64,000 bases of DNA from an uncultured Rhodospirillaceae bacterium (lineage in GTDB: Bacteria; Pseudomonadota; Alphaproteobacteria; UBA9219): NCBI GenBank assembly GCA_964649675.1, contig CAZYPX010000001.1, positions 10,470-74,469 of the forward strand. The letters run 5' to 3'. The position numbers and the translations under genes were made by a program. Of this stretch, positions 21,441 to 64,000 are shown piece by piece. Position 1 is the stretch's first letter; every line of letters starts with the position of its first letter. Below the pieces are notes generated by a model. The model was not told the DNA's origin, did not search any database, and was given only the letters and a program-made list of their open reading frames with translations.

Positions 21441-21448
21441 ATCAGCGT

Positions 21449-31852: not shown

Positions 31853-32155
31853 TTATTCAAATACTTCGTTCGCCACCTTGGCATCTTCAGCTTGATCTGC
31901 GGAAGAGTGTTGCTGAAGTTTTTCCTTCAACGAAACCCCATGCTGCGTAAAAAACTCAACACCGTGATCTGAAAATACGCTTATAATTTTCTCAACTGTC
32001 GCAGCGGTCGGCATAAACTGACCGTGCTCGATATTTTTTACTGTTTCAGCGGAAATACCTACGAATTTCCCGCATTGCGCTCGACTCCAGTCCAACAGTG
32101 CTCTGGCAGCACGAAGTTGTACAGGTTTGATGGTTGTAGGGGTCTGCTGCTTCAT
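31853..32155 (-). CDS. short XRE-type HTH protein (HTH module only; paralogue 5)
   Basis: VQLRAARALLDWSRAQCGKFVGISAETVKNIE…HGVEFF. The likely start is M29 of the listed ORF (32155), which avoids overlap with the upstream gene. Confidence 0.45.
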   Translation of the reverse strand: MKQQTPTTIKPVQLRAARALLDWSRAQCGKFVGISAETVKNIEHGQFMPTAATVEKIISVFSDHGVEFFTQHGVSLKEKLQQHSSADQAEDAKVANEVFE

Positions 32156-32168
32156 AGTTCGGCTCTTG

Positions 32169-32489
32169 TTAGTTGATGGCCTCGGCAAAGTTAAAATTGA
32201 CGAGATAACGAACGACATCATCAAATTGATCTCGTTCAAAATCTTTGACGGCTTTAACGCCGAAGGCTGTCGTCAAAATTGCGACAACCAGTTCTGCACT
32301 AACGTTTTGTGAGTAGGCCACGTAGGCAACTACAGCAGAAACTGCTCTCAATTCCTGTTGTGCAAACTTCCCCGTATAAAGGGAGGCAAGCTCTATATTG
32401 ATGGGATTTGCGCGTTCGGCGAAGTAGTCATGCGCCGGTTTGGCTTCCTCAATCATTTTACGAATAAGAGCTTTACGATCTGACAACAT
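32169..32489 (-). CDS. small protein of unknown function (paralogue A)
   Basis: Shares a conserved core (…A.V.AYVA.SQ.V..E.V..I.TT..G..AV…Q…Y.D.VEYLV…) with 32506-32832. Confidence 0.35.
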   Translation of the reverse strand: MLSDRKALIRKMIEEAKPAHDYFAERANPINIELASLYTGKFAQQELRAVSAVVAYVAYSQNVSAELVVAILTTAFGVKAVKDFERDQFDDVVRYLVNFNFAEAIN

Positions 32490-32832: not shown

Positions 32833-32853
32833 TTGAAATCCCTCTCTGTAAAA

Positions 32854-33304: not shown

Positions 33305-33376
33305 TTTCTTGTGCAACTATTTCTGCTATGGTAATTTAAAATTACTCTGAGAGATACATTTCAACAGGAACAAGCC

Positions 33377-34036
33377 ATGCCAACAGGGAAACAAGTCAGG
33401 GCTGCACGGGTTCTCGCTGGATGGGATGCGGAGCATCTTGCGCAAAGCACAGGTCTCACCGCCGTCACCATCCTAAAGATTGAGCGAGACGAAGCAATGC
33501 CACGTCCGGCCACGATGGAGAAAATTGTTCGGGCGTTTGACAAAGAAGGCATCGAGTTCACCGACAACCAAGGCGTTCGATTCAAACCAACGGGCGTTAC
33601 CGTATATGATGGTGTGGCTGCCTTCGAAGACTTCCATGAATTCCTGTATCTCCATTTGAAACAACACGGCGGTGAAGTTTGCCTGAGCATTTATGATGAA
33701 CCTTCGCTCGCCAAGTACCGTAAAGATCCTGAAATACATCGCTCACGCATGAGAGAGTTGGTAGGTAGCGGAAAAGTCACCTTCAGAATACTGACGACAC
33801 AAAGCAGTTGGAATACGCGTGGGTACATTCAATTTAAATGGCTGCGAAACCAACGGCCTTTACCTACAGGCTTTTATGCGTTCGGAGATTGCTTGGCATT
33901 GGTGTCATTTGTTGATCCGCAATCGCCATATGTTGTCGTTCTTCAATCAGGGCCAATGACTGAAGCCTATCGCCAAGGCTTCAATATCGCATGGGATTCA
34001 GCGGAGAATCCCCCAAGCGAAGGCACCGATAAATGA
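33377..34036 (+). CDS. XRE-type HTH protein with conserved C-terminal domain (paralogue 3)
   Basis: VRAARVLAGWDAEHLAQSTGLTAVTILKIE plus the shared C-terminal blocks. It is followed 13 nt later by AsnB-like 2. Confidence 0.55.
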   Translation: MPTGKQVRAARVLAGWDAEHLAQSTGLTAVTILKIERDEAMPRPATMEKIVRAFDKEGIEFTDNQGVRFKPTGVTVYDGVAAFEDFHEFLYLHLKQHGGEVCLSIYDEPSLAKYRKDPEIHRSRMRELVGSGKVTFRILTTQSSWNTRGYIQFKWLRNQRPLPTGFYAFGDCLALVSFVDPQSPYVVVLQSGPMTEAYRQGFNIAWDSAENPPSEGTDK

Positions 34037-34049
34037 GTGGGGAATAGCT

Positions 34050-35892: not shown

Positions 35893-37770
35893 TTACTTGT
35901 TGGAATTGATAATTTCTCGCAGAAATGCTTCCCCATATCGCTCCAGCTTAGCCGCGCCAATCCCCGAAATGTTCCCCATCTCCTGTAACGTCTTTGGCTG
36001 CGCTTTGGCTAAACCAATCAGGGTTGTGTCATGGAAAATGACATAAGGTGGCACGTTTTGCGCCTTGGAGAGTTCGAGACGCAAAGCACGCAAGCGTTGG
36101 AAAAGTTGTTCGTCGTCCGCATTGTCCAGAGTTGGTTTGCCCTTTGGGCCTTCGGAGGCTGAAACGCGCTTTGATTTAACCTCACGTCTAAGCGCAAAAG
36201 TGGCATCCTCACGCAGCGTCACTTTCTTCTCGCCGCGTAAGACCGGTTTGCATAGCTCGTCGGATCCCAACCGTAAACCGCCATGCCCTTCCATGTCTGT
36301 AACAAGCAATCCATGAACGACAAGCTGGCGAAAAATGTCGCGCCACTGAACGCGGCTGAACTCCTTGCCCACACCATAGGTCGGCAACTGGTTGTGCCGG
36401 AACTGGCGAATGCGTTCGGTATCCGCGCCAACGAGCACGTCCGTCAGATGGGCCGCGCCGAACCTCTGGCCGGTGCGGATCGCGCACGACAACGCCTTTT
36501 GCGCGGCTACGGTGCCGTCAAAAGAGGGAACAGGGTGAAGGCACAGGTCACAGTTGCCGCAGGGTTCGGCAAGTGTTTCCCCAAAGTATTCCAGCAGAAC
36601 CTGCCTGCGGCATCGGGGGCTTGAGCAATAACCGATCAAGGCATCCAGCTTGCGGCGCTCCAGTTGCTTGCGCTGTTCGCTTGCTTCGCCGTCCTCGATC
36701 ATCTAGCGCAGCTTGGCGACATCCTCAATGCCGTAGAGCAGCAATGCTTCCGAAGGCAGGCCATCGCGTCCGGCACGGCCTGTTTCCTGATAGTAGGCCT
36801 CGATGCTTTTGGGCATATCCATGTGAACAACAAAGCGCACATCCGGCTTGTCGATCCCCATGCCAAAGGCGATGGTTGCCACGATGATCACGCCTTCGTC
36901 TTTGATAAACCTGTCTTGGTTTCGCGCACGGACATCGGCTGCCAGTCCTGCGTGATAAGGAAGCGCGTTATAGCCTTGTCGTGCCAACCAATCGGCGATC
37001 TCCTCAACACGAGCGCGGGACAAGCAATAGACGATTCCGGATTCCCCGGCGTGATCTTTCTTTAGAAACCGCAACAACTGCTCGCGCGGCTTGGCTTTCG
37101 GCGTGACATGATAGCGGATGTTTGGACGATCAAAGCTGGAAATAAAGATGCGCCCGCGTTCCAATTTCAGCTTTTTGACAATCTCATTACGAGTCGGCAC
37201 ATCGGCGGTGGCCGTCAAAGCGATGCGCGGGACATTCGGGAAGCGTTCATGCAAAACAGTCAGTTGCAGGTATTCAGGTCGGAAATCGTGCCCCCATTGG
37301 GAGACGCAATGCGCCTCATCAATGGCAAACAGAGAAATCTGGCATTCGCCCAACAGGTTGAGCGTTCCCTCCATCAACAGTCGTTCTGGCGCAACGTAAA
37401 GAAGATCAAGTTCCCCGGAGCGCATCTTCCCGATAATCCGTGCAGCTTCGCCATTCCCCAGTGTTGAATTGAGCGCTGCTGCCCGAACTCCAAGCTGCTT
37501 TAAAGCCTCCACCTGATCTCGCATCAGGGCAATCAGCGGCGATATCACAACTCCAACGCCTGGACGGCATAGGGCGGGTATTTGAAAGCACAGTGACTTT
37601 CCTCCGCCCGTAGGCATCAGCACAAGAGCCTCGCCGCCGTTTACCGCATGCGTGATAATTTCTTCTTGCCTGCCCCGAAAAGAGTCAAAACCAAAAACAT
37701 TGCGCAGAACATCAAATGAATCGGCTTGCTTTGCTTTTGTGATTTCACAGTTTGGCGAGGACAATTGCAT
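35893..37770 (-). pseudogene. recQ: recQ helicase gene interrupted by a single in-frame TAG (helicase core, then Zn-binding/WH/HRDC part)
   Basis: The 355-aa ORF (DEAH helicase, …[25 protein letters not shown]) stops at TAG 36703-36705. The next codon is the ATG of a 269-aa ORF in the same frame (…CGNCDLC… then an HRDC-like C-terminus). Together they align collinearly with RecQ as I recall it. Confidence 0.7.
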
Positions 37771-48306: not shown

Positions 48307-49296
48307 ATGACACAGCCGGATAAACGCGAGGCCTATGACCCGGAAAACACATGGCTCCATGATCTTGATTTCGTGGATATGTACGTTTCCCTGTATCGTG
48401 ACTTTCCAAGTTACTGCCAAGTCATAGAACCCGACGCCTTTTCAGTAATTACGCGACATGTGCCGCAATCATATCAAGCCGATATTCGCCAATTGCGCCA
48501 CGAACTGGAAATGGCGCTTGAGGGCCGCGAGGAAGCCAGCATCCTTTATGATGGCTTACGTCTGCGCGCGAGCAAAATTGTCACCACACGGGGTGAAACG
48601 TGGGTCGCGTTGCGTCGCGTTGCGGATAGGCCGCCCTTGATCGAAAGTTTGGGCTTCACCATCCCCATTACGCAATTGCTCCGTGAATTGGGAAGGCGCG
48701 AAGGACTCGTCCTCGTTTGCGGAGGGACGGGTCAAGGCAAGACCACCACGGCCAGCGCGCTGCTTTATGATTATCTCAATCGCTTTGGCGGCCTGGCGTT
48801 TAGCATAGAAGATCCTGTGGAATATCTGCTGGACGGAAGTCATGGCGAGTCGGGCCTCTGTTACCAGGTCGAAGCTCAACACGATGACGATTGGGCAAAA
48901 TACTTGAAGCGCGGGTTGCGATGGAATCCCCGTTACATTATGGTCGGCGAGGTGCGCACGCCTCAGGCAGCCAACCAATTGCTGCGCGCAGCGAATTCCG
49001 GCCATCTGGTGATTACAACGATGCATGCCGGCTCCATTGAGGAAGCGCTGGATGGTCTGTTGCAACTTGCTTTCCAAGCCATCGGCGAGATGGCGCCGAC
49101 ATTGCTGGCTTCGGGCCTTACGGCGGTCATGCACCAAAGTTTTCTTTCCCACTCGGTCGGAACGCGATTGTACGTCACGGAAAGCGCAAGCCTAGGAGAA
49201 CCTGTGCGGGCGCTTATACGCGAACGCCGTATCGGTCAAATCACAACGTTCGTCGATCAGCAGGAAGCACGGAGGGCGCATAAGCCAAGGGGATAG
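48307..49296 (+). CDS. PilT/VirB11-family secretion-type ATPase
   Basis: Walker A VCGGTGQGKTTT, Asp box IEDPVEY and His box TTMHAGS; 329 aa. Confidence 0.55.
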   Translation: MTQPDKREAYDPENTWLHDLDFVDMYVSLYRDFPSYCQVIEPDAFSVITRHVPQSYQADIRQLRHELEMALEGREEASILYDGLRLRASKIVTTRGETWVALRRVADRPPLIESLGFTIPITQLLRELGRREGLVLVCGGTGQGKTTTASALLYDYLNRFGGLAFSIEDPVEYLLDGSHGESGLCYQVEAQHDDDWAKYLKRGLRWNPRYIMVGEVRTPQAANQLLRAANSGHLVITTMHAGSIEEALDGLLQLAFQAIGEMAPTLLASGLTAVMHQSFLSHSVGTRLYVTESASLGEPVRALIRERRIGQITTFVDQQEARRAHKPRG

Positions 49297-49302
49297 CAGC
49301 GG

Positions 49303-50259
49303 TTATGAGCTCCCAATCAAAACACCCGCGAGAAGCACCAGACTGCCCCCCAAGACGACCTGCACGAGCGCGGAAGTAAACGGCGTTTCCATATATTTCC
49401 AGCGAATCCAACAAATGGCCAACAATTCGAACAGCACAAGAACGCCGGCAACGGCCGTCGCCGTCCAGAAATCGGCAATAAGGTATGGCAGCGTGTGGCC
49501 AAGCCCCCCAGCGGTTGTCATAAGGCCACAAGCCGTGCCGCGTATCCACGGATGCCCTCGGCCCGTAAGAGTTCCATCGTCCGACATGGCCTCGGTGAGG
49601 CCCATGCTGATGCCGGAACCTATGGAGGCCGCCAAGCCGACAAGGAAAGCATCCCACGTTTGCCGCGTCGCAAAAGCCGCAGCAAAGATAGGCGCCATTG
49701 TGGAAACGGATCCGTCGATTAATCCGGCAAGGCCAGGCTGCACGATCTGCAGCAAAAACATCCGTCGCGCCACGCTGTTTTCGGCTTTTTGGGCATCTTC
49801 GGGGACAAGCGCCTTTTCCGTGGCGTCCGCTTTCGCGGCATGTCCCACCTCTTCGGCGGCTAGATCCCCCAACAATTTGCGCACGTCGATATCCGTCGAA
49901 CGACGCGCGGCGCGGTTATAGAAATTGGCGGCTTCAACCTCCATCATGGCCGCTTGCCGTCGAACAGCATCGATACGAAGGTTGTTCATGAGCCAAATCG
50001 GACGACGCTTCATGAAGCCCCGCACGTCTTGCCGCGTGATGTAGGGCATGCGCTCGCCGAACTTCCTGCGGAAGAGTTCAAGCAAGCGGTTTTTATGCCC
50101 TTGTTCTTCCGCAGCCATGGTCTCGAACATTTTCGCCGTTGCGGGATATTCGTCACGCAACCTGCTGGCAAAGCTAAGATAAATTTGCATGTCCTCTTCC
50201 TCGCTGGAGATAGCAAGGGCGAGAACTTCGCTTTCGTCAAGCTCGCAAAAACGTTTCAT
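49303..50259 (-). CDS. mbfA: membrane-bound ferritin-like / VIT1 (CCC1) family iron exporter, MbfA-like
   Basis: An N-terminal ferritin/rubrerythrin-like domain (likely start MKRFCELDE… at 50259) is fused to a C-terminal VIT1-family membrane domain. The ORF track start at 50505 is probably a spurious extension. Confidence 0.65.
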   Translation of the reverse strand: MKRFCELDESEVLALAISSEEEDMQIYLSFASRLRDEYPATAKMFETMAAEEQGHKNRLLELFRRKFGERMPYITRQDVRGFMKRRPIWLMNNLRIDAVRRQAAMMEVEAANFYNRAARRSTDIDVRKLLGDLAAEEVGHAAKADATEKALVPEDAQKAENSVARRMFLLQIVQPGLAGLIDGSVSTMAPIFAAAFATRQTWDAFLVGLAASIGSGISMGLTEAMSDDGTLTGRGHPWIRGTACGLMTTAGGLGHTLPYLIADFWTATAVAGVLVLFELLAICWIRWKYMETPFTSALVQVVLGGSLVLLAGVLIGSS

Positions 50260-50333
50260 AGGAATGGCCTTTGTTTGGGGAAGCTTATACAGATAAGCCT
50301 TCGAAACGGCGAAAAGCAAGCGCAGGAATCTTG

Positions 50334-50954
50334 TCAGATCGCGCCTGTGTGTTCGAGTACGATAATGACGCCTATGCCGATCAGTACGGCGCCACCAAAG
50401 GCACCTGCGATTTTTCCTCCCCGCTTTCCGATAGCATGGCCGATCGTCACGCCGGCAGCGGACATTGTGAACGTTGCTAAACCAATAGTCACCGCAGCGA
50501 TCCATATGTTGGCGTCGATGAACGCCAATGAAACGCCCACCCCCATGGAATCAATGCTTGTCCCAAATGCGGTTACGAGCAGCAGTTGTTTTTTATGCTT
50601 CTTGGGTTCTTGTTTGTGTTCAAACACCATGTTTTCCACAATCATTTTTACACCCAAAGCCGTAAGTATGAAAAACGCGATCCAATGGTCGAGCATCGTG
50701 ATAATCGAGCTGGCCATAAGCCCGAAAAACCACCCCACTATTGGCATGCACCCTTCTACCGCGCCGAAAATTGAGGCTATTCGAAGAGCTTCGGTTGGCT
50801 TGGGGCGACGCAATTCGGCGCCTTTGGCCACGGATGCGGCAAAAGCGTCCATCGACAAACCAAGAGCGACGAGGATGGTTGCAGCAGGAGTCATAAAAGC
50901 GTCATTTTCGGGAAAACACCAACGACAAAACACAGGCAAAAACGCCCAGGGCAA
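50334..50954 (-). CDS. mntP: manganese efflux pump MntP
   Basis: 206-aa membrane protein with the MntP/YebN repeat architecture (…GLSMDAFAASVAKG…). Confidence 0.8.
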   Translation of the reverse strand: MPWAFLPVFCRWCFPENDAFMTPAATILVALGLSMDAFAASVAKGAELRRPKPTEALRIASIFGAVEGCMPIVGWFFGLMASSIITMLDHWIAFFILTALGVKMIVENMVFEHKQEPKKHKKQLLLVTAFGTSIDSMGVGVSLAFIDANIWIAAVTIGLATFTMSAAGVTIGHAIGKRGGKIAGAFGGAVLIGIGVIIVLEHTGAI

Positions 50955-50959
50955 ACCTC

Positions 50960-51165
50960 ACCCTGGACCCCTTTGCGTACAAGACAGGGCCTCTTTTGTT
51001 ATAGAGGAAGCGTTAATACAATCCGAAAAGGAAGTGGCCGGACAAGGCGAGAAAGACCACAAAAAGAAAAATCATTGCTTTCTCATGACCACATAGCCCT
51101 TTTATATGCTGACACCCCTCCATTTTGCACATTATCGACATAGCTCTCCCCTTGGTTTGATGTGA
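50960..51165 (-). promoter_or_regulatory. candidate yybP-ykoY-type Mn(2+) riboswitch leader of mntP-mbfA
   Basis: The minus-strand leader contains AAGGGGAGAGC…CAGCAUAU, resembling conserved yybP-ykoY elements. This riboswitch class is classically found upstream of mntP. The structure was not folded. Confidence 0.3.
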
Positions 51166-51245
51166 TCTAGAATATATTCTATCATAGTTTTACTAAGGCC
51201 TTGAAGGGCAAGACAAGGATAAAGCCGTGTTGGCTTCGGTTCTTT

Positions 51246-52529
51246 TCAAGGAGTTTTGTCATCGAACTCCTTCATCTTCGGCACGCGGGAAAAGGCGATT
51301 TTGCTGGTCATGGAAGGCAAATACGCGCCGAAAGCCAGCGTGCCTTTGCCATAGCGCGCGTTGATCTTGTCGACGGCGAGCGAAAGTGCTTCCGGCGCGC
51401 GGCTGTCGAACAGGTCGGGCTGGTGGGCTTCGCGCGGCCTCAAGTCAGCAAGCGTGATGCCGACGCGCAAGGGCTTCAGCGACGGAGCGGCGTGCCACAG
51501 CGGCAGCATGACTTTCAGCAAAAACGCCGTATCCTGTGTTTCCTGAAAACGGCTCTCCTGCACGTAATAGCCGAGATCCTGCACCCATTTCACCTCGAGG
51601 ATCAGGCGACGGCAGTAAAAGCCTTCGTCGCGCAAACGTTGCGCCGCGCGCACGAGCAATTGCCGGATCACGGGAGCGGCAAGATCGAGCCGCCGTTCAT
51701 CGGGCGGCAAAACATGCTGATGCCCGAGGCTGCGTCGCGGGTGGCTGGGGCTCGGCAAATCCTCGCCGTGCAAAAGCGCATGAAAACGCGCGCCCGTCAC
51801 GCCGCGCCAGATAGAGCGCAAACGTCCGGCATCCGCTGTCCATAGCGTCGCGATGTCGGGAATGCCCGCCGCGCGCAGGCGCGCAGCCATGTTCGCGCCA
51901 ATGCCGGGAACGTCTTCGAGGCTGAGACGTAAAATGGCTTGTGGCAGGATTTTGAGCGGCAAGAGCGTAAGGCCGTCGGGCTTGTGCATGTTCGAAGCCA
52001 GCTTGGCGAGCAGCTTGTTCGGCGCGATGCCGATGGAGCTTGTCAAACAGGCTCCCACGCGCTGGCGGATAGCGACCTTCAGCGCGAACGCCAATTTACG
52101 CGCTTCATCGGGTTCACGCTGTACGCGGTCGAGACGGCACGCGACTTCGTCGATGGATAAAACATCGTCGATAGGGATGAGCGTTTCGATCGCTTCAAGA
52201 AACCTGTGGTGATATTCGACGTAAAGCTTGGGCCGCGCCTGAACGAGCTTGAGGTGTGGGCACATCAATCTGGCTTCGCGCACCATCGTGCCGGTTTTGA
52301 CGCCGAAAGCCTTGGCTTCGTAACTGGCCGCGATGGCGCAGGTGGTGTCCGCCATCATCGGCACGACCGCAACGGGTTGACCACGCAAGGCAGGGACAGC
52401 CTGCTGCTCGCACGAAGCGAAAAAACTGTTCATGTCAAGAAAAAGCCAACGCAAACAAAAGGATAAGCTGGATTCGCCTTGGCCCAAGCCGTCTAAAATG
52501 TTCATGTTTCGTTCTATAACCCAAAACAT
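51246..52529 (-). CDS. dinB: Y-family DNA polymerase IV (DinB-like)
   Basis: Catalytic N-terminus LDMNSFFASCEQ and Y-family palm/fingers blocks. The true start is probably an internal Met (52505 or 52433). Confidence 0.7.
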   Translation of the reverse strand: MFWVIERNMNILDGLGQGESSLSFCLRWLFLDMNSFFASCEQQAVPALRGQPVAVVPMMADTTCAIAASYEAKAFGVKTGTMVREARLMCPHLKLVQARPKLYVEYHHRFLEAIETLIPIDDVLSIDEVACRLDRVQREPDEARKLAFALKVAIRQRVGACLTSSIGIAPNKLLAKLASNMHKPDGLTLLPLKILPQAILRLSLEDVPGIGANMAARLRAAGIPDIATLWTADAGRLRSIWRGVTGARFHALLHGEDLPSPSHPRRSLGHQHVLPPDERRLDLAAPVIRQLLVRAAQRLRDEGFYCRRLILEVKWVQDLGYYVQESRFQETQDTAFLLKVMLPLWHAAPSLKPLRVGITLADLRPREAHQPDLFDSRAPEALSLAVDKINARYGKGTLAFGAYLPSMTSKIAFSRVPKMKEFDDKTP

Positions 52530-52644
52530 GCCCTGTATGCAATTACGTTATGAAAGGAAGTTTTTTGCTGATAATTAAGGAGGAAAGGATGAGTTGAGGA
52601 AAGACACCAGCTACCATGAGAAAACAACTGGATAGGAGCGGTCC

Positions 52645-53109
52645 TTGGAGATAAGACAGCTAAGCCATCAGGATTTGCCACCTCTTCTGGAACTTTACAA
52701 ACACCTGAATAAAACCGATGCTCCCTTGCCGCCTATGGAGCAAGTTGAAGGGGTTTGGAGTTGCATCATCTCCAGCGATATATGTTCATGTTTTGGCGGA
52801 TTCGTAAACGACGTGTTGGTTTGCTGTTGCATTCTTTCCATTATCCCAAACCTTTCGCGCGGATGTCGGCCTTATGGTGTTATGGAGAACATCGTGACGC
52901 ACACAAACCACAGAAAACGAGGCTTTGGCGGCGGTCTCTTGAAATATGTGTTGGCGTATGCGTGGTCGAAAAATTGTTATAAAGTGATGCTGTCAACGGG
53001 CCGTAAAGACGAAGAAATCGAGCGCTTTTATGTCTCTGTCGGTTTTGATCCCAAGGCAAAAAGGGCGTTTGTCGCCACCCCCCCTGTTGTTGAACACGAC
53101 AATGCATAG
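52645..53109 (+). CDS. GNAT-family acetyltransferase
   Basis: 154-aa ORF with an HRKRGFGGGLLKYVL acetyl-CoA-binding motif. Confidence 0.55.
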   Translation: MEIRQLSHQDLPPLLELYKHLNKTDAPLPPMEQVEGVWSCIISSDICSCFGGFVNDVLVCCCILSIIPNLSRGCRPYGVMENIVTHTNHRKRGFGGGLLKYVLAYAWSKNCYKVMLSTGRKDEEIERFYVSVGFDPKAKRAFVATPPVVEHDNA

Positions 53110-53446
53110 CCCGTCCTTCAGAAAAGTAACAGACAGAGATTCGCCTTTCCTGATCGCCCTCAGGGAGTTCACGATGCGTGAACATGTTGAGCGTTCAGCT
53201 TACATCATGCGTTATGCGTTGCTTATAACGGAAAACACCTTACATGACCGCGCAAGGCCAGAACAGTCCTTTGCACGCACAGTGCCCTGATATTCCCGCT
53301 TTGTTCTGCGCAAAACCAGAGAAAAGGTTTCCAGCCTTTCACGAGAAAGATGTTGGCCTTTTCAAAAGCTCAGGTCCTTCCGCCCAAAGCGTTTTTAGTG
53401 GCCAGCTTTGGCGCAATTATGTAGAAGACATCCCGCTTACCGTTAA

Positions 53447-54619
53447 ATGCAATGGATGATTCCATTTTTCATGTCTACGCCCCAGAAACCCGAACGCATC
53501 GTTTCCCTTGATTTCTGGCGTGGCGCTTTTCTGCTCATGATCTATGTCAACCATGTGCCCAACAATTTTTTAGCGTCGGTTACTTTGCGAAACTGGGGCT
53601 TTGCGGACTCAGCCGAGCCTTTCGTTTTCATCTCCGGTTTCAGCGCTATGCTGGCTCTAGGCCGTTATTTCGAGACAGGGGGGATAGGCATCGGTCTTTT
53701 GCGGGTTTTAAAGCGCATATGGCAGCTGTTTTGCGCTCATGTGCTTCTTGTCTTTGCTCTTTCGGCCATTATTGCTTTCGCGGGCGAGTTTACGGATAGC
53801 AAATCGATCATGGAACAACTCAACTTCTCACCGTTTTTTGTCGAAACGGACATAGCCATCAAAAAACTCCTTAAACTCGGATATATGCCAAATTTGACGG
53901 ATATCTTGCCGCTTTATATCGTTCTGGTCTTCCTGTTTCCCATAGCGTGGGCGTTGACAAAAACATCTTCTCTTCTTGCCCTTCTGGCATCCCTATCACT
54001 GTGGCTTTTTGTCACGCTGACAAACCACAGTTTATCGAATTATCCGGAAGGTGCGGTCTGGTTTTTCAACCCTCTGGCCTGGCAAGTTTTGTTTGTCGCC
54101 GGCATGGTGACGTATAAGGAGCGCGCCCGTCTTCCGCGAGTGCTTCAATCAAACAGCCTGCTCTGGCTGTCCCTCATCATCGTATTCGCTAGTATGGTCG
54201 CTGTGGCCCCATGGACGCATATTCCTTCCTTGAGGGAATACAGGCTTGTGCCCACCGCGTTTCTTTCCATCGATAACAAAACCAACTTGTCATGGGTGCG
54301 TATCGTTCATTTTATGGCTCTGGCTTTCCTCGCCGCGCGTCTGGTTCCAGCCAGCGCGAGCCTTTGGAAGAACAGAATCGTTAAGGCGGTTTCTCTTTGC
54401 GGGCAGCATTCTCTGACGATTTATTGCGCAGGCTCGGCCCTGTCCCTGGCCGCGCACATCATTTTGCACATAGGTGGCCTCGGGCCGGTTGTCGCCATGT
54501 GGCCTGTGGCGGCTGGCGTAGTCCTTCTTGTTTTTTTGGCCATGGCCTTACAGACGGCCAAAGTCTTGCTTATGCACAACGGAGCTCGCAGCAAAATCGC
54601 AAGCACTGCGGCACTCTAG
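53447..54619 (+). CDS. opgC: OpgC-like membrane acyltransferase (acyltransferase_3 family)
   Basis: Ten or more TM segments and an N-terminal FWRGAFLLMIYVNH motif typical of OpgC/acyltransferase 3. Confidence 0.55.
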   Translation: MQWMIPFFMSTPQKPERIVSLDFWRGAFLLMIYVNHVPNNFLASVTLRNWGFADSAEPFVFISGFSAMLALGRYFETGGIGIGLLRVLKRIWQLFCAHVLLVFALSAIIAFAGEFTDSKSIMEQLNFSPFFVETDIAIKKLLKLGYMPNLTDILPLYIVLVFLFPIAWALTKTSSLLALLASLSLWLFVTLTNHSLSNYPEGAVWFFNPLAWQVLFVAGMVTYKERARLPRVLQSNSLLWLSLIIVFASMVAVAPWTHIPSLREYRLVPTAFLSIDNKTNLSWVRIVHFMALAFLAARLVPASASLWKNRIVKAVSLCGQHSLTIYCAGSALSLAAHIILHIGGLGPVVAMWPVAAGVVLLVFLAMALQTAKVLLMHNGARSKIASTAAL

Positions 54620-54647
54620 GCGCCCGCGCAAGGGGACTTTCCTAAGT

Positions 54648-56396
54648 CTAGATATGCACAAACGACCCAATATGAACTTGCGCAAGAGCCCCGCCATTGC
54701 TCGCGCCAGACAAGCCGGATCCCAGCATGCCTTGCGTTTTGCCTTCGGGCGCTTCGGCCCCCCTCAGGTCAAGCCAGGGCCGCTCCAGTGAAGGGCGTCC
54801 AAAATAATAGCCTTGCATCATGTCGACTTTTTCCTCACGCAGCCATTGCGCTACGTCTTCGGTTTCCACACCTTCGGCGACCGTTTTCAGCCCAAGGCCC
54901 CGCGCAATCTGGATCAACATACGGACAAGATGCTGTTGTTCGTTATTGCCGATCAGATTCAAAAGAAGCTCACGGTCAATTTTCATGATGGACAAAGAAA
55001 GCGTACGAAGGTGGCGAATCGAGGTCGACCCTGCCCCGAAGTCGTCAAGCGCGACTTGACTGCCTAACCTGTTAAGGGATTCCACAAGTCGCTTTGTTTC
55101 GGCGACATCCATGATGGCAGCCGTTTCCGTAATCTCGATAATAAGCCGTTTTGCCACTTCAGGTTTTGAAGACAAAAGCTTGTTCATGTAATTTGGCCAT
55201 TCGGCCTGCGCCGCCGTCAATCCGGAAACGTTTACGGCCAGCTGCAGCCTATCGTAGGCTTCCAGCTCGCGAATGGCGAGCTTTAGGACGTGGCGATCGA
55301 GCTCCGATGCCAGACCTTGTTGCTCAACAATCGGGATAAATTCTGCGGCGGGCATAATACGGCCGTCGTCGCGGTATAGGCGCGCCAAGGCTTCGTAAAA
55401 CAAAACCTGTCCCGTTTCGGTTTCAATGATCGGTTGAAAAGCCAGCTTTAAGCGATCGTTTTTCAGCGCATGTTTAACGCGTTCAGCTATTTCGAGAACA
55501 TTGCGGTTTTCTTGAGATCTTCCGGGCGACACCTGATATTCGACAAATTGGTTGCGGCCCTTTTGCCGAGCTTCACGCAACGCCTGTTCCGCGCGGATCA
55601 TAACCTCGCGCGCATCGAGTTTCGAGCCGTTTATATGCATGAAACCGATGGAAACCGTGATGTGGATGGACGATACCGCCGTTATGACGGGGCGATCGCG
55701 AAAGCTTTGGAGAACACGATCGGTAAAATCGAGGGTTCCGCTAGCAAGTCCCGGCAAAATGATGCCGAAGGTATCACCGCCGCAACGCCCTACAATGGCT
55801 TTGAAAGGACTCAGGTTGCTAAGACGGTCAGCGACGGCGCATAAAATAGTGTCTGCGGGCTTGGTGCCTACGGCTTCGTTTACAAAGGCCATATCGTCGA
55901 TGCCGATAACAAGGTATGCGGTGGATTGCCTGCTTTCTTGAGGCCCCTCAAGAATGCGTTTAAGCTGCGTTAGAAGTCCGTTCCGGTTTAATCGTCCGGT
56001 AAGGTGGTCTCTCTCATTGGGCGCTGCCGCCAAAGGCAAAAGACGCTGATGGGGGCCGTCAATAATGCGTATCAGACCATTCTGGCGAACGGAGCGGCCA
56101 TTGTCGTGGTCTGTCGAACCATGTTCGCAAACCCACACAACACGTCCATCAGCCAAGAGGACGCGATATTCGCGATCAAACTCCGGGGAGCTGTCGTTAA
56201 AGACAAGATAGTGGTCGTCAGGCAAAACATGCCGTGCCAATGTTTCCGCGTTATGCGGCGGTGCGTCGATATCTCCGAAAAGTTTTTGCCACGGCCCCAT
56301 CCAGACAAGCGAGTCGTTGACGAGATCCCAGCTATAGGCGATATGGCCTGAAGCGGCCAAGATATCGGCTAGAGAGGTTGGGGTGTGGTCTGTCAT
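54648..56396 (-). CDS. PAS-GGDEF-EAL signalling protein (c-di-GMP turnover)
   Basis: Degenerate GGDTF in the GGDEF domain; EAL-domain blocks (QPIIETETG, ETA…KID) follow. Confidence 0.75.
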   Translation of the reverse strand: MTDHTPTSLADILAASGHIAYSWDLVNDSLVWMGPWQKLFGDIDAPPHNAETLARHVLPDDHYLVFNDSSPEFDREYRVLLADGRVVWVCEHGSTDHDNGRSVRQNGLIRIIDGPHQRLLPLAAAPNERDHLTGRLNRNGLLTQLKRILEGPQESRQSTAYLVIGIDDMAFVNEAVGTKPADTILCAVADRLSNLSPFKAIVGRCGGDTFGIILPGLASGTLDFTDRVLQSFRDRPVITAVSSIHITVSIGFMHINGSKLDAREVMIRAEQALREARQKGRNQFVEYQVSPGRSQENRNVLEIAERVKHALKNDRLKLAFQPIIETETGQVLFYEALARLYRDDGRIMPAAEFIPIVEQQGLASELDRHVLKLAIRELEAYDRLQLAVNVSGLTAAQAEWPNYMNKLLSSKPEVAKRLIIEITETAAIMDVAETKRLVESLNRLGSQVALDDFGAGSTSIRHLRTLSLSIMKIDRELLLNLIGNNEQQHLVRMLIQIARGLGLKTVAEGVETEDVAQWLREEKVDMMQGYYFGRPSLERPWLDLRGAEAPEGKTQGMLGSGLSGASNGGALAQVHIGSFVHI

Positions 56397-56673
56397 TTTT
56401 GTGCTTACAGCTCTTATGGTAAAATGCGCAATTTTTTTTCTGTATTACCGTTGAGCCCTCAAGGGTTAGCTTTTCGAATTCATTAATTATCATAGGCCTA
56501 GCTCTCTTAATTTTTCCTAAAATCGCGCAAAACCTTTTGCTTTTGCTGCGCCTCGCGGCAAGGCGCTGAAATATCAGGAAAAATGTCCTTACGCGCTTTG
56601 GGAGCACGCTGCGAACACGCCTTTTTGTCTTAATGTGCAGTTAGGCGTTTTATGTAAAAAAACGTTGCTGCTT

Positions 56674-57723
56674 TTATTGGGATTGTTTGTTCTCGATACG
56701 GCTTTCCTGAAAAACCGTTTCAGCCAGTCTCTTGATCGTTTTTTTGAGAGAATCGCGGACGTCAATCGCCGCTTGCATGTCGGCAACCTTGCCCTCATGG
56801 GTAAAGACCGTAAAGCGGTGTGAGGGGGTTATATAGAATAAAAGGGCTCCAGAAATGCCGTTTTCGCCCGCGCTTTTTTTGTTTGAATTCGCCACGCATT
56901 GCACATCAACAACACGCATAACAAGGTCGCCTGCTTGCTCTTCTTGGCCAATCTCGACGTCAAAAGAACCTGCACACTTTTTTTTCAGGCCATTCACATA
57001 AAGGCCGATCAGATCGCTCAGACTTTTGCCTTTTACGACAAGGCGTTCGCGCACGCCACCCTTAAGCGCCCCCGTTTGCCACATGTAATCGGCGGGCCTT
57101 CGGTCGACAGGCAAACCTTCGAGGCTAAGGGGCACGACATTTTTAAGGCCGGATTCGAATAAAAGAGCCTTAAGCGCATCCGGCAAGTCTTCAGAAGCTA
57201 CGGCTTTTTTCGTCTTTTTTTTGTTGTCGCGGGTGCATTTTTGTAAATCATTTATTGTCCCGCGCATATTGTTCAAGGAATAATCCAGTCTTTTGCCGGC
57301 CGCCTCGACGCTGAGCCGGTTGGCCTTGATCAAAGATTCCGTGAAAGCCGGATTATTTCCCATCTGTAAAATGAGGGAGTCGGCATCGATGGCTATGGAA
57401 CGAATGGCCCGTTCGTATTTTCCGCTCTGTTCTTTCTGTGAAGTCTCCAGAGAGAGCGTCAGATCGTACTGGGCGTTCGCCACGAAGCCTGCGTCAGGAA
57501 TCACAAGCCCAATGTTGAGCTTGTTTGACGGCGCAAAGGCAAAAGCAAGCTTGCGCCCATCGGCATAACTCTTTTCGACAAGGCAAAAACCGAAGGTTCC
57601 ATCTTGCTCGAAGATGGGCCACGCCCTCAGATCTTCGCTCTTTTGCTGGCCTAAAACGGGCGCGACCGAGGCAATCAGAACCCCTAGACCGAAAAAAACT
57701 GCTCTTGCTATGATCCGCGCCAT
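56674..57723 (-). CDS. secreted protein of unknown function
   Basis: The likely start is MARIIARAVFFGLGVLIASVAPVLG (signal peptide) at 57723. The longer listed ORF overlaps lpxD on the opposite strand. Confidence 0.4.
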   Translation of the reverse strand: MARIIARAVFFGLGVLIASVAPVLGQQKSEDLRAWPIFEQDGTFGFCLVEKSYADGRKLAFAFAPSNKLNIGLVIPDAGFVANAQYDLTLSLETSQKEQSGKYERAIRSIAIDADSLILQMGNNPAFTESLIKANRLSVEAAGKRLDYSLNNMRGTINDLQKCTRDNKKKTKKAVASEDLPDALKALLFESGLKNVVPLSLEGLPVDRRPADYMWQTGALKGGVRERLVVKGKSLSDLIGLYVNGLKKKCAGSFDVEIGQEEQAGDLVMRVVDVQCVANSNKKSAGENGISGALLFYITPSHRFTVFTHEGKVADMQAAIDVRDSLKKTIKRLAETVFQESRIENKQSQ

Positions 57724-57864
57724 GAACGATCCATAAAAACGGCCTTTTTTTAAAAGACGCCTTGTTTTCAACATTATGAGGGGTAAAGTACGCTTGCGGA
57801 CCTTGTAAGGCAAGCCGTATGCAACCTCCTGTTTTTCACCTTGTAAACGGGCTAAACCAAAAAC

Positions 57865-58968
57865 ATGAAAAAAAGCTATTCCATGCAAGTTGTGGCCGAG
57901 GCTCTCGGCGGACATCTCATAGGCGACGGTACTCATCAAGTCGAACGCCTTGTTCACCCTGCTGAGGTTAGGGGGGCTCAAGACCTCGTTCTCGCCACCG
58001 ACAAAGCGCTCTTGCCTCTTTTGGCCGGATCCCTCGCGAAGGCCGCTGTCATTGCCGATATGGATGCCGTGAACCAGAAAGCCTTCGCGGCACTTATCGT
58101 CGTGGAGCGGCCTCGCTTCGCGATGGCAGCGTTGACCCGCGTGTTCGAGCAAAGGCCACAAGTGGCTGTTGGCGTTCACCCGACAGCGATTGTCGAGAAA
58201 GGCGCCAAGCTTGCTGATAACGTGTCCATCGGACCCATGGTTTACATCGGGGCCGACGCAATCATCGGCGCGAACAGCATCGTGCATCCACATGTTTATA
58301 TAGGCCCAGAAGCCCAAATCGGGGACGGATGCCTGATTCATGCGGGCGTAAAGATCGGTGCGCGCGTCAAAATCGGGAAACGAAACATCCTTCACTTTAA
58401 CGCGTCGGTCGGCGCGGACGGCTTTAGTTTTGTAACGCCCCAAATAGGCAGCGTCGAGGCCGCCAAAGCCACAGGCGAGGTTGTGGCGACGAACGATCAA
58501 CTTGTCCGCATTGCCTCGCTTGGCACAGTCATTCTGGGCGATGACGTCGAAGTCGGGGCCAACACCTCAATTGACCGTGGCACGATTACGGCTACCCGTA
58601 TCGGCAACGGCTCAAAAATCGACAATCAGGTTCAGATAGGACACAACGTTACGGTTGGCGAAAACTGTATGCTGTGCGGACGCGTAGGTATCGCGGGAAG
58701 CGCCGTGATCGGCGACAGAGTCGTGCTCGGCGGCGCCGTGGGCGTTGCGGATCACGTGAAGATAGGAGATGACGCTATCGCCATGGGCATGAGCGGCATA
58801 GCCTCCAATGTTCCGCCCAAAACCATCGTAGGCGGGATGCCGGCCAAGCCGCGCGAAAGGGCCTTGCAGGAGCAATTGTTCCTTGGGCGCTCCAAGTCTT
58901 TGGTTAAAAAGATCGAATTATTGGCTGAGCGTCTCGAGAAGCTTGAGCGGCAGGCCAATAACGACTAG
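57865..58968 (+). CDS. lpxD: UDP-3-O-acylglucosamine N-acyltransferase-like (LpxD family, hexapeptide repeats)
   Basis: 367 aa with LbH hexapeptide repeats and an LpxD-like N-terminus. Confidence 0.7.
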
Positions 58969-59000
58969 TTTGCCTTTAGGAAGCATCAAGGGGAAACGCG

Positions 59001-59255
59001 ATGTCCCAAATTGACGAAATTCTGGATGTAGTTGCCGAAAAGGCCATGGTGGACCGGAGTAAGCTTGTGCCCGAAGCCAAGCTGAGCGACTTGGAAATCA
59101 GCTCGCTTGACATGGTCGAAGTGATTTTTGCTCTTGAAGACAAGCTTGGAATTGAGATGCCGTTCAACGCCAACGTCAACGCGCAGGAATTCCAAACGCT
59201 CGGCGATGTCATTACGGCTGTTGAAAAACAGCTTGCGAACAAGAAAAGCGCATAA
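59001..59255 (+). CDS. acyl carrier protein (specialised ACP)
   Basis: 84 aa with a DLEISSLDMVE phosphopantetheine-attachment Ser motif. Confidence 0.75.
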   Translation: MSQIDEILDVVAEKAMVDRSKLVPEAKLSDLEISSLDMVEVIFALEDKLGIEMPFNANVNAQEFQTLGDVITAVEKQLANKKSA

Positions 59256-59278
59256 CAAGCTTAAGAGAAACGGTTTCG

Positions 59279-60499
59279 ATGAATCACTCCCGCCGCATCG
59301 TTATCACGGGCTTAGGCGTTGTCAGCCCCATTGGCCTTGATGTTCTTACGTTCAAGAATAATTTATTCAACGGCGTTTGCGGCATCGAAAGCGCCGTATT
59401 TTCTTATCGCGGAGACGACGTGCGCTTTCCGGCCGCGCCCGTTAAAAATTTTGACGTCACGCGTTATATGGACACGAAGAAAGCATCGTTGCTTGATCGC
59501 TTCTCACAGCTTTCCGTGGCCGCCGCCATGCAAGCGATGGAAGATTCCGGCCTGAAGCTTACGCCCGAAAAGGCAGAGCGCATGGCCGTAATAACGGGCA
59601 CCGGCGTAGGCGGCCAGAACACGCTGGAAGATTCCTATATGAAGCTTCTGGGCAACGGGCCTCCGCGCGTGCACCCCTTTACGATTCCGCGCCTTATGGC
59701 GAACGCCGGTTCAAGCCAAATCAGCATGGCGCTTGGCATACAAGGTCCTGGCTTTACGGTTGCAAGCGCATGCGCTTCGGCCATTCATGCTATGGGCGTG
59801 ACCCTGCACATGATGCGCTCGGGCCTTTTCGATATGGCCATCACCGGGGGCGCTGAATCGTGTCTTACGTTCGGTACCCTGAAAGGATGGGAAGCTCTGC
59901 GGGTTATGGCTCCGGACATTTGCCGCCCGTTTTCGATCAATCGTGCCGGAATGGTCATCGGCGAAGGCGCGGCGATGTTTGTTCTGGAGACCTTGGAGTC
60001 CGCCAAAGCGCGCGACGCAAAGATCTATGCCGAATTTCTTGGTTTTGGGATGAGTTCGGATGCTAAAGACCTCACAACGCCCGATGTGAACGGCGCTGCT
60101 CGCGCGGTCATAAACGCGCTTAAAGATTCCGGAATCAAACCCGATGACGTCGATTATATCAACGCGCACGGCACAGGCACGCGCATCAACGACCTCACCG
60201 AAACGGCGGTGATAAAACAGGTGTTCGGCGACAAAGCAAAAAAGCTCGCCGTTTCTTCAAGCAAGTCCTTGTTCGGCCACGCCTTGGGGGCGGCAGGCGC
60301 GCTGGAAATGCTAGCCACGGTTATGGCGGTGACCGACGATAAAGCCCCGCCAACGGTCAACTACCTTGGTCTTGATCCCGAATGCGATCTTGATGTTGTG
60401 CCTAACCAAGCGCGCGCTATGCCAATCCATATTGCCCTTAATAACTCTTTCGCCTTTGGTGGCTTAAACGCGGTCGTCGCCATTAAAAAGGCCGTTTAA
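59279..60499 (+). CDS. fabF: beta-ketoacyl-ACP synthase II (FabF-like)
   Basis: 406 aa with the active-site Cys in ASACAS, His blocks (HGTGT, GHALGAAG) and C-terminal NSFAFGGLNA. Confidence 0.85.
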   Translation: MNHSRRIVITGLGVVSPIGLDVLTFKNNLFNGVCGIESAVFSYRGDDVRFPAAPVKNFDVTRYMDTKKASLLDRFSQLSVAAAMQAMEDSGLKLTPEKAERMAVITGTGVGGQNTLEDSYMKLLGNGPPRVHPFTIPRLMANAGSSQISMALGIQGPGFTVASACASAIHAMGVTLHMMRSGLFDMAITGGAESCLTFGTLKGWEALRVMAPDICRPFSINRAGMVIGEGAAMFVLETLESAKARDAKIYAEFLGFGMSSDAKDLTTPDVNGAARAVINALKDSGIKPDDVDYINAHGTGTRINDLTETAVIKQVFGDKAKKLAVSSSKSLFGHALGAAGALEMLATVMAVTDDKAPPTVNYLGLDPECDLDVVPNQARAMPIHIALNNSFAFGGLNAVVAIKKAV

Positions 60500-60634
60500 G
60501 CCGTATGTTTACACGCGGCGCAGGCTTTATATGCGTGAAGGCTTTTTTGTTTGCGGATAACACCCATTCCTTGCTTTTGTGCTATAATCGATCCAGTTTT
60601 CTTGGGCTTTCGCTCTGAAAAAAGGAGGATGACA

Positions 60635-61318
60635 ATGCGCACATGCCGAAAAATAGTCCTTTTCAGCCTGTTTTTGGCCATGACCGCAGCTTCTTTCGCC
60701 TCATATCCTCAAGCGGCTGAAACGGACGCTGCCAACCAGGCTCGATCCATCAGAAACGAGGAAGCCCTGAAAAGTCCGGCAGGTCGGTATATTCAGGACT
60801 TGGGCCATCGCGCCATCAAAATTTTAAGCGATCAACGCCTTACGCTCGAACAGCGTAAGATCGAATATCACACCATTTTGCGCGATTCGTTCGATGTTCC
60901 GACTATGGGAAAATTTGTGGCCGGTCGAGCCTGGAATTTGGCCGCGCCCGAAAAGCAGAAGGAGTATTTGCGCCTCTTTGAGGAACTTCTTGTCAAGATC
61001 TACGCTGAGCGTCTCGCCTCCTATAAAGGGGAGGATCTGATGGTGACAGGCGTTCGGCAAGAAAGCGAACGCGACTATGTTGTCTCCAGCGAAATACTCC
61101 ACCTTCGCACGGGGGCGCCGCCTACTGCCGTGGATTGGCGCGTGCGCAAAAACAATGACAAGCTGGCCATCGTCGATGTTGTGATCGAAGGCGTCAGCCA
61201 AAGCGTTTCCCAACGCGAGGAATACGCCTCGATCATCCATCGGGATGGAGGAAAGCTTGACGCCCTTTTGTCCCAGATGCGCGAGCAACTGCAAGCCCTT
61301 AATCATGCAAAAGGGTAG
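60635..61318 (+). CDS. mlaC: MlaC/Ttg2D-like periplasmic phospholipid-binding protein
   Basis: Signal peptide, then Tol-tolerance Ttg2D-type blocks (…FDVPTMGKFVAGRAW…). Confidence 0.5.
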   Translation: MRTCRKIVLFSLFLAMTAASFASYPQAAETDAANQARSIRNEEALKSPAGRYIQDLGHRAIKILSDQRLTLEQRKIEYHTILRDSFDVPTMGKFVAGRAWNLAAPEKQKEYLRLFEELLVKIYAERLASYKGEDLMVTGVRQESERDYVVSSEILHLRTGAPPTAVDWRVRKNNDKLAIVDVVIEGVSQSVSQREEYASIIHRDGGKLDALLSQMREQLQALNHAKG

Positions 61319-61350
61319 TCTTTGGCCGCTTGGGTTGATAAGGGCTTTCG

Positions 61351-61965
61351 ATGAATTCCAGCGTCTTTAATGCAGAAAAGGGTCGTAAACCTTTGGTGTT
61401 TCCGTCTGACGTACGACGGGTTTTGCTTCACTCCTGCTGTGCGCCTTGCTCCGGCGAAATTATCGACGCGATTCATGAAACGGGAACGGCTTTCACGGTA
61501 TATTACTACAATCCCAATATATATCCTCGCGATGAATACGAAAAACGCAAGGCCGAGAATAAGCGCTTTGCCGAAAAACTTGGCGTGCCCTTTGTTGACG
61601 TTGATTACGACAACGATTGCTGGTTGGCTCGCGTGAAGGGTTTGGAAAACGAACCCGAACGAGGAGCCCGATGCACGATATGCTTTTCTATGCGCCTAGA
61701 ACGCGCTGCGCTTTATGCGCACGAAAACGGTTTTGATACGCTGGCGACCAGCCTCGGCATTTCACGGTGGAAAAACCTGAATCAGGTGAACGCCTGCGGT
61801 CTCAAAGCGGCTGAGCCTTATGCAGGCTTGCGTTTTTGGGATTACAACTGGCGGCAAAACGGCGGCGCTGATCGTCGCTTCGTCATCGCAAGACGCGAAG
61901 GTTTTTACCAACAGGATTATTGCGGTTGTATGTATTCGCTTAAGGCCGCGCAGAAAAAAACATAA
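61351..61965 (+). CDS. queH: epoxyqueuosine reductase QueH (DUF208)
   Basis: [11 protein letters not shown]-terminal Cys cluster and C-terminal QDYCGCMYS; 204 aa. Confidence 0.75.
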
Positions 61966-62135
61966 AAGCAGAACGCTTCACAAAGCCTAGCTCATTGATA
62001 GGCGCAGACCCTGACTCTGCTTGATTGTTGCCGTTTCACCAGCAAAAACCAGGGGCTTTTTGCGCAAGCCCTCGTTCCCCCCCCCCCCTTCTCGCAGAGG
62101 AGCGGAACGCCGCTTTATCTTTTTCGCTATTGAGA

Positions 62136-62693
62136 CTACTTGGCGCTGAGGATCATGACGATCTGGCGGCCTTCGAAGCTGGGTTCGCTTTCGACCTTGC
62201 CGATGGCATCCAGTTCCTCGCGGACGCGTTTAAGCAGGGTTTGCGCGATTTCCTGATGCGACATCTCGCGGCCGCGGAAGCGCAGCGTGATTTTCACCTT
62301 GTCGCCGTTTTCCAGAAACGATTTGGCGTTCTTCATTTTGATGTTGAAGTCATGATCGTCGATCATCGGGCGAAGCTTGATTTCCTTAAGCTCGATCACC
62401 TTTTGCTTTTTGCGCGCTTCGGCGGCTTTCTTTTGCATCTCGTATTTATATTTGCCCGAGTCGAGAATCTTGCATACGGGCGGATCGGCGTTGGGCGAAA
62501 TTTCTACGAGATCAAGTCCGGCTTCTTCGGCCAAGGCCATGCCTTCTCGTACCGTCATGACGCCGCGCATTTCTCCTGCCGCATCGATTACACGAATTTG
62601 CCTTGCGACGATGGCGCCGTTAATGCGGGGGCCATCCGTTTTATCTTTCCGGAAGCCGTCTTGGCGATCCCGGGCTGGTTGTGGACGAACGAT
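62136..62693 (-). CDS. infC: translation initiation factor IF-3 with non-AUG (AUC) start
   Basis: …[22 protein letters not shown]… is classical IF-3. The frame is open upstream with no ATG. An ATC codon at 62691-62693 lies 8 nt after an AAGGAG RBS. Confidence 0.75.
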
Positions 62694-63109
62694 GGAAAAA
62701 TCTCCTTTGGTTGTTGTCTATATCTTGATGACCGAAAAACGCTTGTTTTTTTAATTAGCCCCAAAAGCCAGAGCATGATGTACAGATACGCGCGTCCAAG
62801 GCCAGATCTATAATTAGGCGGTCTACGCTATTTTGGTCAAGTAAGGAACGTTAAATGTGGGCCGGAGAATTTCTCATTGCATGGCGTTGGTTAAAGGCTT
62901 TTTTACGTAAAAGTGAGGCACCCATGATTGTTTTTCGACGTTTTTGGGTGTAAGAGAGCCGTTCCTGAGAGGGCCCAAAGACACAGCCATCAAAAACCCC
63001 TAAAAAGCCTTTGAAAAAAAAGGGTTTTTACTTCTAGAGAATATTTGGGATTATAGCCTTGATTTTGTATAGTAGAGTTAACTTTTATATTTAGGCAATA
63101 GAACACCCC

Positions 63110-63763
63110 ATGAGCAATGGACAATCTGTAATGATCACAATCCCGCAGATCAAGGCCGCCCGAGCTCTTTTGGGATGAACGCAGCGGGATTTGGCCAAGA
63201 CAAGCGGCATTTCGTTGGCGGCAATAGCCCAGATCGAGAGCGGCGCAGGCAATCCGCGTCTTGGAACGATGCGTGTCATTCAAAACGCTTTTGAGAGGCA
63301 TGGGGTCGAATTTTCTGATGATCCGGGGGTTCGCGTTCAGGCGGAACCGTTCGACGTTATAGTGTGGCAGGGGCGCGAGGCTGTTGAACGGCTTTGGAAC
63401 GATATCGAGGAGACGATGGGCGATGGCGGCGTATTATCGGTCAGTGCGATGCGTCACCACATCTGGGAGGAGTTGTTTCCCGGGCGCGTAAAAGAAGTTT
63501 ATGAAAGCCGCGTCAAGAAGAACATAAGCATGCGTGGGCTGTTCGCGAAGATAGAAGACAACACGACGTGGCCGTCCGAGAGTTGCCGTCTTGTGCCGCT
63601 TGACGCGCTCAACACGCACACGCCGCACTACATCTATGCCGACAAAGTGGCGCTCGTAAAGCTGACCGATCCCTTGCGCGTCGTCTTGATCCGCAATCCA
63701 ACGCTGGCGGAAAGCTTTCTCAAACAGTTCCAGTTTCTGTGGGACACCGGTAAAAAATTCTAG
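63110..63763 (+). pseudogene. XRE-type HTH protein, paralogue 4, with in-frame TGA replacing the conserved Trp codon
   Basis: ATG 63110 gives MSNGQSVMITIPQIKAARALLG-TGA-TQRDLAKTSGISLAAIAQIESG… In the paralogues this position is W (ALLDWSQ, VLAGWDA). The rest of the 217 codons are intact and carry the shared C-terminal blocks. Confidence 0.5.
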
Positions 63764-64000
63764 CGCAAATCCGGCGGCGTCGATTCCATGACGATCAGCT
63801 TGACCGCATCTTCGAGCTTCAGGATTTCCTGAGCCTCGCCTCCAAGGCGGCGTAATGCCACCGTGTGTCCTTCGGCTTCCTTCTTGCCGACGACAAGGAT
63901 CAAAGGAACCTTTTGTAAACTGTGATCGCGGATTTTGGCGTTGATCTTTTCCGGACGCAGGTCCGTTTCAACGCGCAGACCCGCCGCATCCAACGCCTTG
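63760..64000 (-). CDS. thrS: threonyl-tRNA synthetase, 3' (anticodon-binding) part; gene continues beyond the window
   Basis: …[41 protein letters not shown]… is a typical ThrS C-terminus. It has the conserved thrS-infC synteny. Confidence 0.8.

Follow-up and report, generated by a model that had tools for sequence, protein, structure and literature searches.

Does the in-frame TGA at a conserved tryptophan codon of the regulator gene between infC and thrS mark a gene that has just been lost, a codon that is still decoded as tryptophan, or an error in the assembled sequence? We analyzed this locus together with its relatives and with the rest of the window (the whole stretch of DNA under study, 64 kb in length). 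The reading that best accounts for the evidence, to which we give a probability of roughly 60%, is that the TGA is real and arose very recently from TGG, as a nonsense allele (TGG>TGA) that knocks out a conserved, syntenic regulator of an alphaproteobacterial metagenome-assembled genome (MAG). The initial annotation had listed a very recent nonsense mutation among its explanations, and that is the option that the comparisons described below favor. The features of the locus and its paralogues are collected in Table 1.

Table 1. Positions of the regulator gene, its neighbours and its paralogues in the window.
Feature	Position	Strand	Basis or detail
promoter-like site TTGGGA-17-TATAGT	63045..63073	+	consensus scan, 9/12 matches; upstream of regulator gene
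regulator, 5' part before the stop	63110..63175	+	encodes HTH helix 1; translation and alignment
in-frame TGA at conserved Trp codon	63176..63178	+	sequence; TGG/W in relatives; TGA in ENA and Logan assemblies
regulator, remainder	63179..63763	+	HTH helices 2-4 and ~150-aa C-terminal domain, open to TAG 63761-63763
infC (translation initiation factor IF-3), left neighbour	62136..62570	-	Pfam IF3_N and IF3_C on called gene
thrS 3' end, right neighbour	63760..64000	-	Pfam TGS, tRNA_SAD, tRNA-synt_2b and HGTP_anticodon on 657-aa gene in L004
paralogue, ~28% identity	33377..34036	+	TGG 33422-33424; ends with TGA
paralogue, ~29% identity	29138..29827	-	TGG 29765-29767; ends with TGA
paralogue, ~28% identity	31172..31831	-	TGG 31778-31780
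short HTH-only paralogue	31853..32239	-	TGG 32087-32089

The TGA interrupts a genuine gene. The regulator gene (63110/63131-63763) translates from 63110 as MSNGQSVMITIPQIKAARALLG*TQRDLAKTSGISLAAIAQIESG... and stays open through to its terminal TAG. The TGA shares its frame with that TAG and with both upstream ATG codons, of which ATG 63110 comes first in the frame and ATG 63131 corresponds to the start of the orthologues (MITIPQIK...). The 15 residues from ATG 63131 to the TGA, MITIPQIKAARALLG, match the N-terminus of the closest orthologue at 14 positions and align residue by residue with the N-termini of at least 30 homologues, beginning at the equivalent of ATG 63131. Because of this alignment, we conclude that the segment 5' of the TGA belongs to the gene rather than being open by chance. 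Downstream of the TGA there are 190 open codons, so the earlier description of an ORF intact on both sides of the stop was correct. That description also placed the tryptophan in a motif ALLDWSQ; this is the version found in the paralogues, whereas the window gene itself reads ALLG*TQ. The lost residue is W16 counted from ATG 63131, or W23 from ATG 63110, and a stop at codon 16 of 210 is a disabling mutation relative to the intact orthologues. Gene callers annotate only 63191-63763, with a TTG start, as a 190-aa hypothetical protein (P0001) that has no recognised domain. The promoter-like site upstream of the gene is a pattern match only, as the number of such matches was no better than in shuffled sequence.

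Every relative has tryptophan at the position of the stop. We found 33 homologues of the regulator in a search of a large protein collection. The best match was P0001, the product of the window gene itself, and the next best, P0002, was a protein of 210 aa from GCA_964626265.1 with 79% amino acid identity. The tryptophan is invariant in the alignment of full-length family homologues (29/29), and the homologous codon is TGG in all seven related DNA loci (L001-L003, L006, L008-L010) and in all four window paralogues. The contrast between the TGA and the TGG of the paralogues, which had first drawn attention to this gene, was therefore confirmed, and the comparison with orthologous loci that the initial annotation proposed has now been made, with the same outcome at each locus, including the one between infC and thrS. 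Three of the paralogues are 28-29% identical to the regulator over their full length, and the HTH-only copy is 40% identical. All four lie in a low-GC stretch at ~28-36 kb.

We noted several other features of this stretch. Two genes for AsnB-like asparagine synthases (26130-27998 and 34050-35876) also lie within its limits (26130-35876), together with a NUDIX gene and a number of small ORFs that belong to no family. The contig of the ENA assembly stops among the clustered paralogues, at about window position 32268, suggesting that a repeat broke the assembly there.

The regulator is conserved in its position as well as in its sequence. The gene for P0002 is flanked by infC and thrS, has the same orientation and overlaps thrS by the same 4 nt, and we consider P0002 the orthologue because this 79% identical match sits in the same infC-thrS slot. 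It is intact and has TGG followed by ACG at the site. In the window, the regulator and thrS are convergent and overlap by the four nucleotides CTAG (63760-63763), with TAG as the stop codon of both genes, and this overlap is kept at positions 5630-5633 of the orthologous locus (L006) in GCA_964626265.1. The window infC and the infC beside the orthologue share 95% amino acid identity. The gene is thus where it had been placed, next to thrS and infC.

The TGA allele was carried by only one genome among those compared. When we scanned JGI metagenome contigs for the exact pattern across the site, leaving the third base of the codon as N, there were 0 matches and so no second strain with the allele. 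A profile-based search for the locus in metagenomes yielded only five distant loci, all with TGG, and a scan of a genome collection for the regulator found relatives at 37% identity only.

One other family member appeared to be disrupted. P0032 (a hypothetical protein; L013 ~2455-2640, JGI Ga0645786_2547) has a frameshift in an A-run, GAAAAAATACG, that splits the HTH from the C-terminal domain. We rejected it as a second case of a stop at the tryptophan, as its Trp codon is TGG and the frameshift lies further downstream. Either the homopolymer was misread during sequencing or P0032 is a further disrupted copy.

The rest of the regulator gene showed no sign of decay. Comparison with the orthologue gave a dN of 0.143 and, with dS saturated, a dN/dS of 0.037; the corresponding ratios were 0.041 for infC and 0.077 for the 3' end of thrS. 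There was no significant acceleration on the window branch in relative-rate tests with six outgroups (chi2 of 2.6 or less). At highly conserved columns, the window protein and the orthologue have one deviation each, and the gene has no further stops or frameshifts. Because we found neither relaxed constraint nor further decay, the gene, if it is a pseudogene, must be a very young one. These results fit either a very young stop or a gene that is still in use.

The stop falls within the DNA-binding domain of a two-domain protein family. With the TGA read as tryptophan, the regulator matches Pfam HTH_3 with 44.6 bits against a cutoff of 23, in agreement with the XRE-family membership assigned to it initially, and all 29 full-length family members match the same model. 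We obtained an AlphaFold model (AF2) of the orthologue from the family alignment, with a pLDDT of 93.2. The HTH helices of the model comprise residues 4-14, 18-25, 29-36 and 44-56, with the tryptophan between helices 1 and 2, so that in the window gene the TGA interrupts the HTH reading frame between these two helices. After the HTH, the model has a mixed alpha/beta domain of ~150 residues that is an independent, confident fold. This C-terminal domain sets the family apart from other XRE / Cro-C1 (Pfam HTH_3) regulators, and neither Pfam nor NCBIfam has a model for it.

The C-terminal domain of the family is predicted to have a non-catalytic PLD/Nuc-like fold. Unlike the PLD-superfamily nucleases Nuc, NucT and Zucchini, the family has no conserved HxK(x)4D motif in its alignment: the invariant and near-invariant columns contain no His, there is no invariant Lys, and K172 is the sole near-invariant Lys. 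Members of the family thus appear to join an XRE-type DNA-binding domain to a PLD-like domain without catalytic function. The arrangement resembles that of TrmB and TrmBL2, which combine a DNA-binding domain with a PLD-like sensor domain, but the DNA-binding domain of TrmB is a winged helix and that of the window family is XRE-type. With neither these regulators nor the PLD-superfamily nucleases does the family share similarity at the sequence level (no Pfam match). By analogy with TrmB, and going by the fold alone, the PLD-like domain may serve in sensing or in oligomerisation.

TGA is a normal stop codon in this window. The stop codons of 48 long, non-overlapping ORFs are TAA in 22 cases and TGA and TAG in 13 each. 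polA ends in TGA two amino acids after the end of its Pfam domain, and two of the paralogues of the regulator itself also end in TGA. We searched for a second in-frame TGA in a conserved window gene by scanning mechanically for long open segments separated by an in-frame stop, combined with Pfam on 30 ORFs, and found none; the only genes recovered were recQ, which is interrupted by a TAG, and a possibly split methyltransferase. The argument that global recoding is unlikely because other genes in the window end with TGA was thus well founded.

It is conceivable, though unlikely, that the regulator is still functional. In this case decoding of the UGA by Trp-tRNA would be frequent enough for a small amount of regulator to be made, possibly because selection favors lower or conditional expression or because the tRNA-Trp of the lineage is unusually good at decoding UGA. 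The stop is followed by A, and UGA-A is a relatively weak termination context in E. coli. The remainder of the gene is intact and there is a promoter-like site upstream. In E. coli, near-cognate Trp-tRNA competes with RF2 at UGA (PMC10570021); the regulator likewise has UGA at a Trp position, where readthrough would restore the native residue and yield exactly the wild-type product. In addition, tRNA-Trp(CCA) whose anticodon stem is 4 bp long, or which carries A9C/G24A, promotes UGA readthrough, and such enhancing variants exist in many standard-code bacteria (PMC13092985). Resemblance to this 4-bp anticodon-stem or Hirsh-type readthrough is a possibility only, as the window stop is not conserved and has no stimulatory element beside it.

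Several observations argue against continued use of the gene through readthrough. A stop that is programmed to be read through would be expected to be conserved among orthologues, and we found a stop at this site in 0 of 7 DNA loci, all with TGG, and in 0 of 29 full-length proteins, all with W. We found no stimulatory structure, and TGA is a frequent genuine stop in the window, also in two members of the same family. The intact remainder is equally expected of a very young pseudogene; by the same token it counts against the knockout, since it is equally expected if the gene is used via readthrough. The second split gene in the window, recQ, uses TAG, which leakiness of Trp-tRNA does not explain. 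The 64-kb window contains no tRNA genes, including any nearby suppressor tRNA, and the trnW and prfB genes of this genome are located outside it. Incidental readthrough by Trp-tRNA, giving a low level of wild-type protein, is plausible in principle, by analogy with E. coli. With the stop not conserved and no stimulatory structure beside it, nothing suggests that readthrough of the regulator is programmed. We regard as very improbable the more specific proposal that competition between Trp-tRNA and RF2 sets the level of the regulator, as a conditional UGA-Trp switch that occurs naturally in an alphaproteobacterium with the standard code.

The recQ gene is also interrupted by a nonsense codon. 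recQ (35893-37770, minus strand) is split by one in-frame TAG at 36703-36705 into fragments of 355 aa (the helicase domains) and 269 aa (Zn-binding, RQC and HRDC), and the split is identical in the ENA assembly. Solved RecQ structures have Arg at the column of the TAG. Among the best 120 homologues listed, the residue is Gln in 63, Arg in 26 and Ser in 6, with Ser in the two closest; one of the 120, P0047, is the 269-aa fragment from the window itself and does not span the column, leaving 119 informative. The TAG likely, but not certainly, originated as CAG>TAG, judging from these residues. Two nonsense codons of different kinds within 64 kb argue against one Trp-tRNA-specific explanation for both. 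The stops in the regulator and recQ fit either a population with recent loss-of-function alleles or an imperfect consensus in a low-coverage MAG.

The possibly split methyltransferase consists of two ORFs at 8985-11358 (minus strand) that overlap by 8 nt. One encodes 270 aa with a weak, partial match to MmeI_Mtase that scores 23.8 bits where the gathering score is 27, and the other 522 aa with Eco57I and N6_Mtase. The pair may be one type IIG/IIL-like methyltransferase gene, possibly split by a frameshift. Around it, at ~3-19 kb, is an apparent defence island with an AAA_21/SMC-like ATPase, a T5orf172-helicase, a WYL/WCX regulator and a 1139-aa protein with RNase_H_2 and an SF1 helicase. An arginine-related cluster follows at 18921-25854 (minus strand), with two adjacent DDAH-like (PF19420) ORFs, a 298-aa ORF that has no assignment, argininosuccinate synthase, an M20 peptidase and argininosuccinate lyase. 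The last two are in the same frame, with a stop and one codon between them, and are clearly separate genes.

It is also unlikely that the TGA is an artefact of sequencing, consensus or assembly, or a minority variant raised to consensus, with TGG in the real gene. The TGA is read in three assemblies from different pipelines: that of the window, ENA contig NODE_952 (38.7 kb) and the Logan contig of SRR5581382. These contigs are 100% identical over 49279-64000 (14.7 kb), and in a further 7 kb there are only two SNPs between assemblies, both in polA. However, the three assemblies are the same genome and probably derive from one low-coverage read set. Given a shared read set, their agreement on the TGA is not independent confirmation but only the same consensus reached by different assemblers. 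The k-mer coverage of NODE_952 is only ~5.2, the polA differences and the calling of polA in pieces indicate that the consensus is imperfectly stable, and two nonsense-split genes per 64 kb are many for a free-living bacterium. On the other hand, random Illumina errors seldom win the consensus, even at 5-10x. Logan contigs drop k-mers that are seen once only, so the A at the site should rest on at least two reads. An artefact at the level of the reads is therefore unlikely at 63178. The sequencing error considered in the initial annotation is weakened by the agreement of three assemblies, but it is not removed by assemblies that probably share one low-coverage read set.

The differences in polA (38725-41649, minus strand) are at window positions 39662 and 38872, at which the ENA assembly (L007 positions 1109 and 1899) departs from the window. 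Two genes of 299 and 645 aa are called there in the ENA assembly, compared to one 974-aa ORF in the window. This indicates micro-heterogeneity or consensus instability in the MAG.

A downstream restart that produces an HTH-less protein is less probable still. Translation would resume at TTG 63191, TTG 63215 or ATG 63269, all three in frame and at most 31 codons past the stop, and would give a PLD-like protein with a ligand-binding or oligomerisation role or with a dominant negative effect. The 190-aa product annotated by gene callers is such a TTG-start protein, and the C-terminal domain is independently and confidently folded in the orthologue model. However, inspection by eye of the 20 nt upstream of each start revealed no convincing Shine-Dalgarno sequence, and the 190-aa product would begin inside HTH helix 2 and have no working HTH. 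Our search found no natural HTH-less homologue except for fragments and one frameshifted copy.

Finally, although the stop falls exactly on a Trp codon, we excluded genome-wide UGA=Trp (code 4-like) because of the 13 of 48 long ORFs that end in TGA at expected gene ends, polA and two paralogues included, and the lack of any other in-frame TGA in a conserved window gene, and we excluded selenocysteine because there is no SECIS-like hairpin downstream of the TGA (the fold of 63170-63250 gave a z of 0.63 against shuffles), no match to an Rfam element, SECIS among them, and no homologue with Cys at a column that is always W, leaving recoding with a negligible probability.

Based on these comparisons, we favor a young nonsense allele because every relative has TGG, the syntenic orthologue has TGG, there is no other decay in the gene, and TGA is a normal stop. 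We also count the split in recQ in favor of the young nonsense allele, as it would fit a genome or population with a few fresh nonsense alleles. We infer that the reads truly carry the A and that the allele abolishes function. A single G-to-A transition would have turned the conserved TGG into TGA, and a product ending at codon 16, or at codon 23 if translation starts from the upstream ATG, would comprise HTH helix 1 only. The regulator would then be essentially knocked out, as a young pseudogene or as a segregating loss-of-function variant, and any low-level decoding of the UGA by Trp-tRNA would be incidental leakiness and not a designed mechanism. Nothing distinguishes the window gene from an ordinary nonsense-mutation pseudogene (TGG>TGA), in which the same single-base transition occurs at a Trp codon, the rest is intact, and orthologues and paralogues have TGG. 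The phenomenon is most likely an ordinary one of a well-known kind, with no new way of reading the genetic code.

These results bear on how the gene, the genome and the family are described. The stop would be of interest, as a natural example of conditional expression through UGA-Trp, only if it were kept across strains and read through. Together, the TGA in the regulator and the TAG in recQ flag the MAG as one with either recently arisen loss-of-function alleles or flaws in its consensus. We recommend annotating the gene as an XRE-family regulator with a nonsense interruption, whether as a pseudogene or as a low-coverage variant, in place of the 190-aa hypothetical protein, and for the family as a whole, the architecture of an HTH with a predicted non-catalytic PLD-like domain is a modest gain in annotation.
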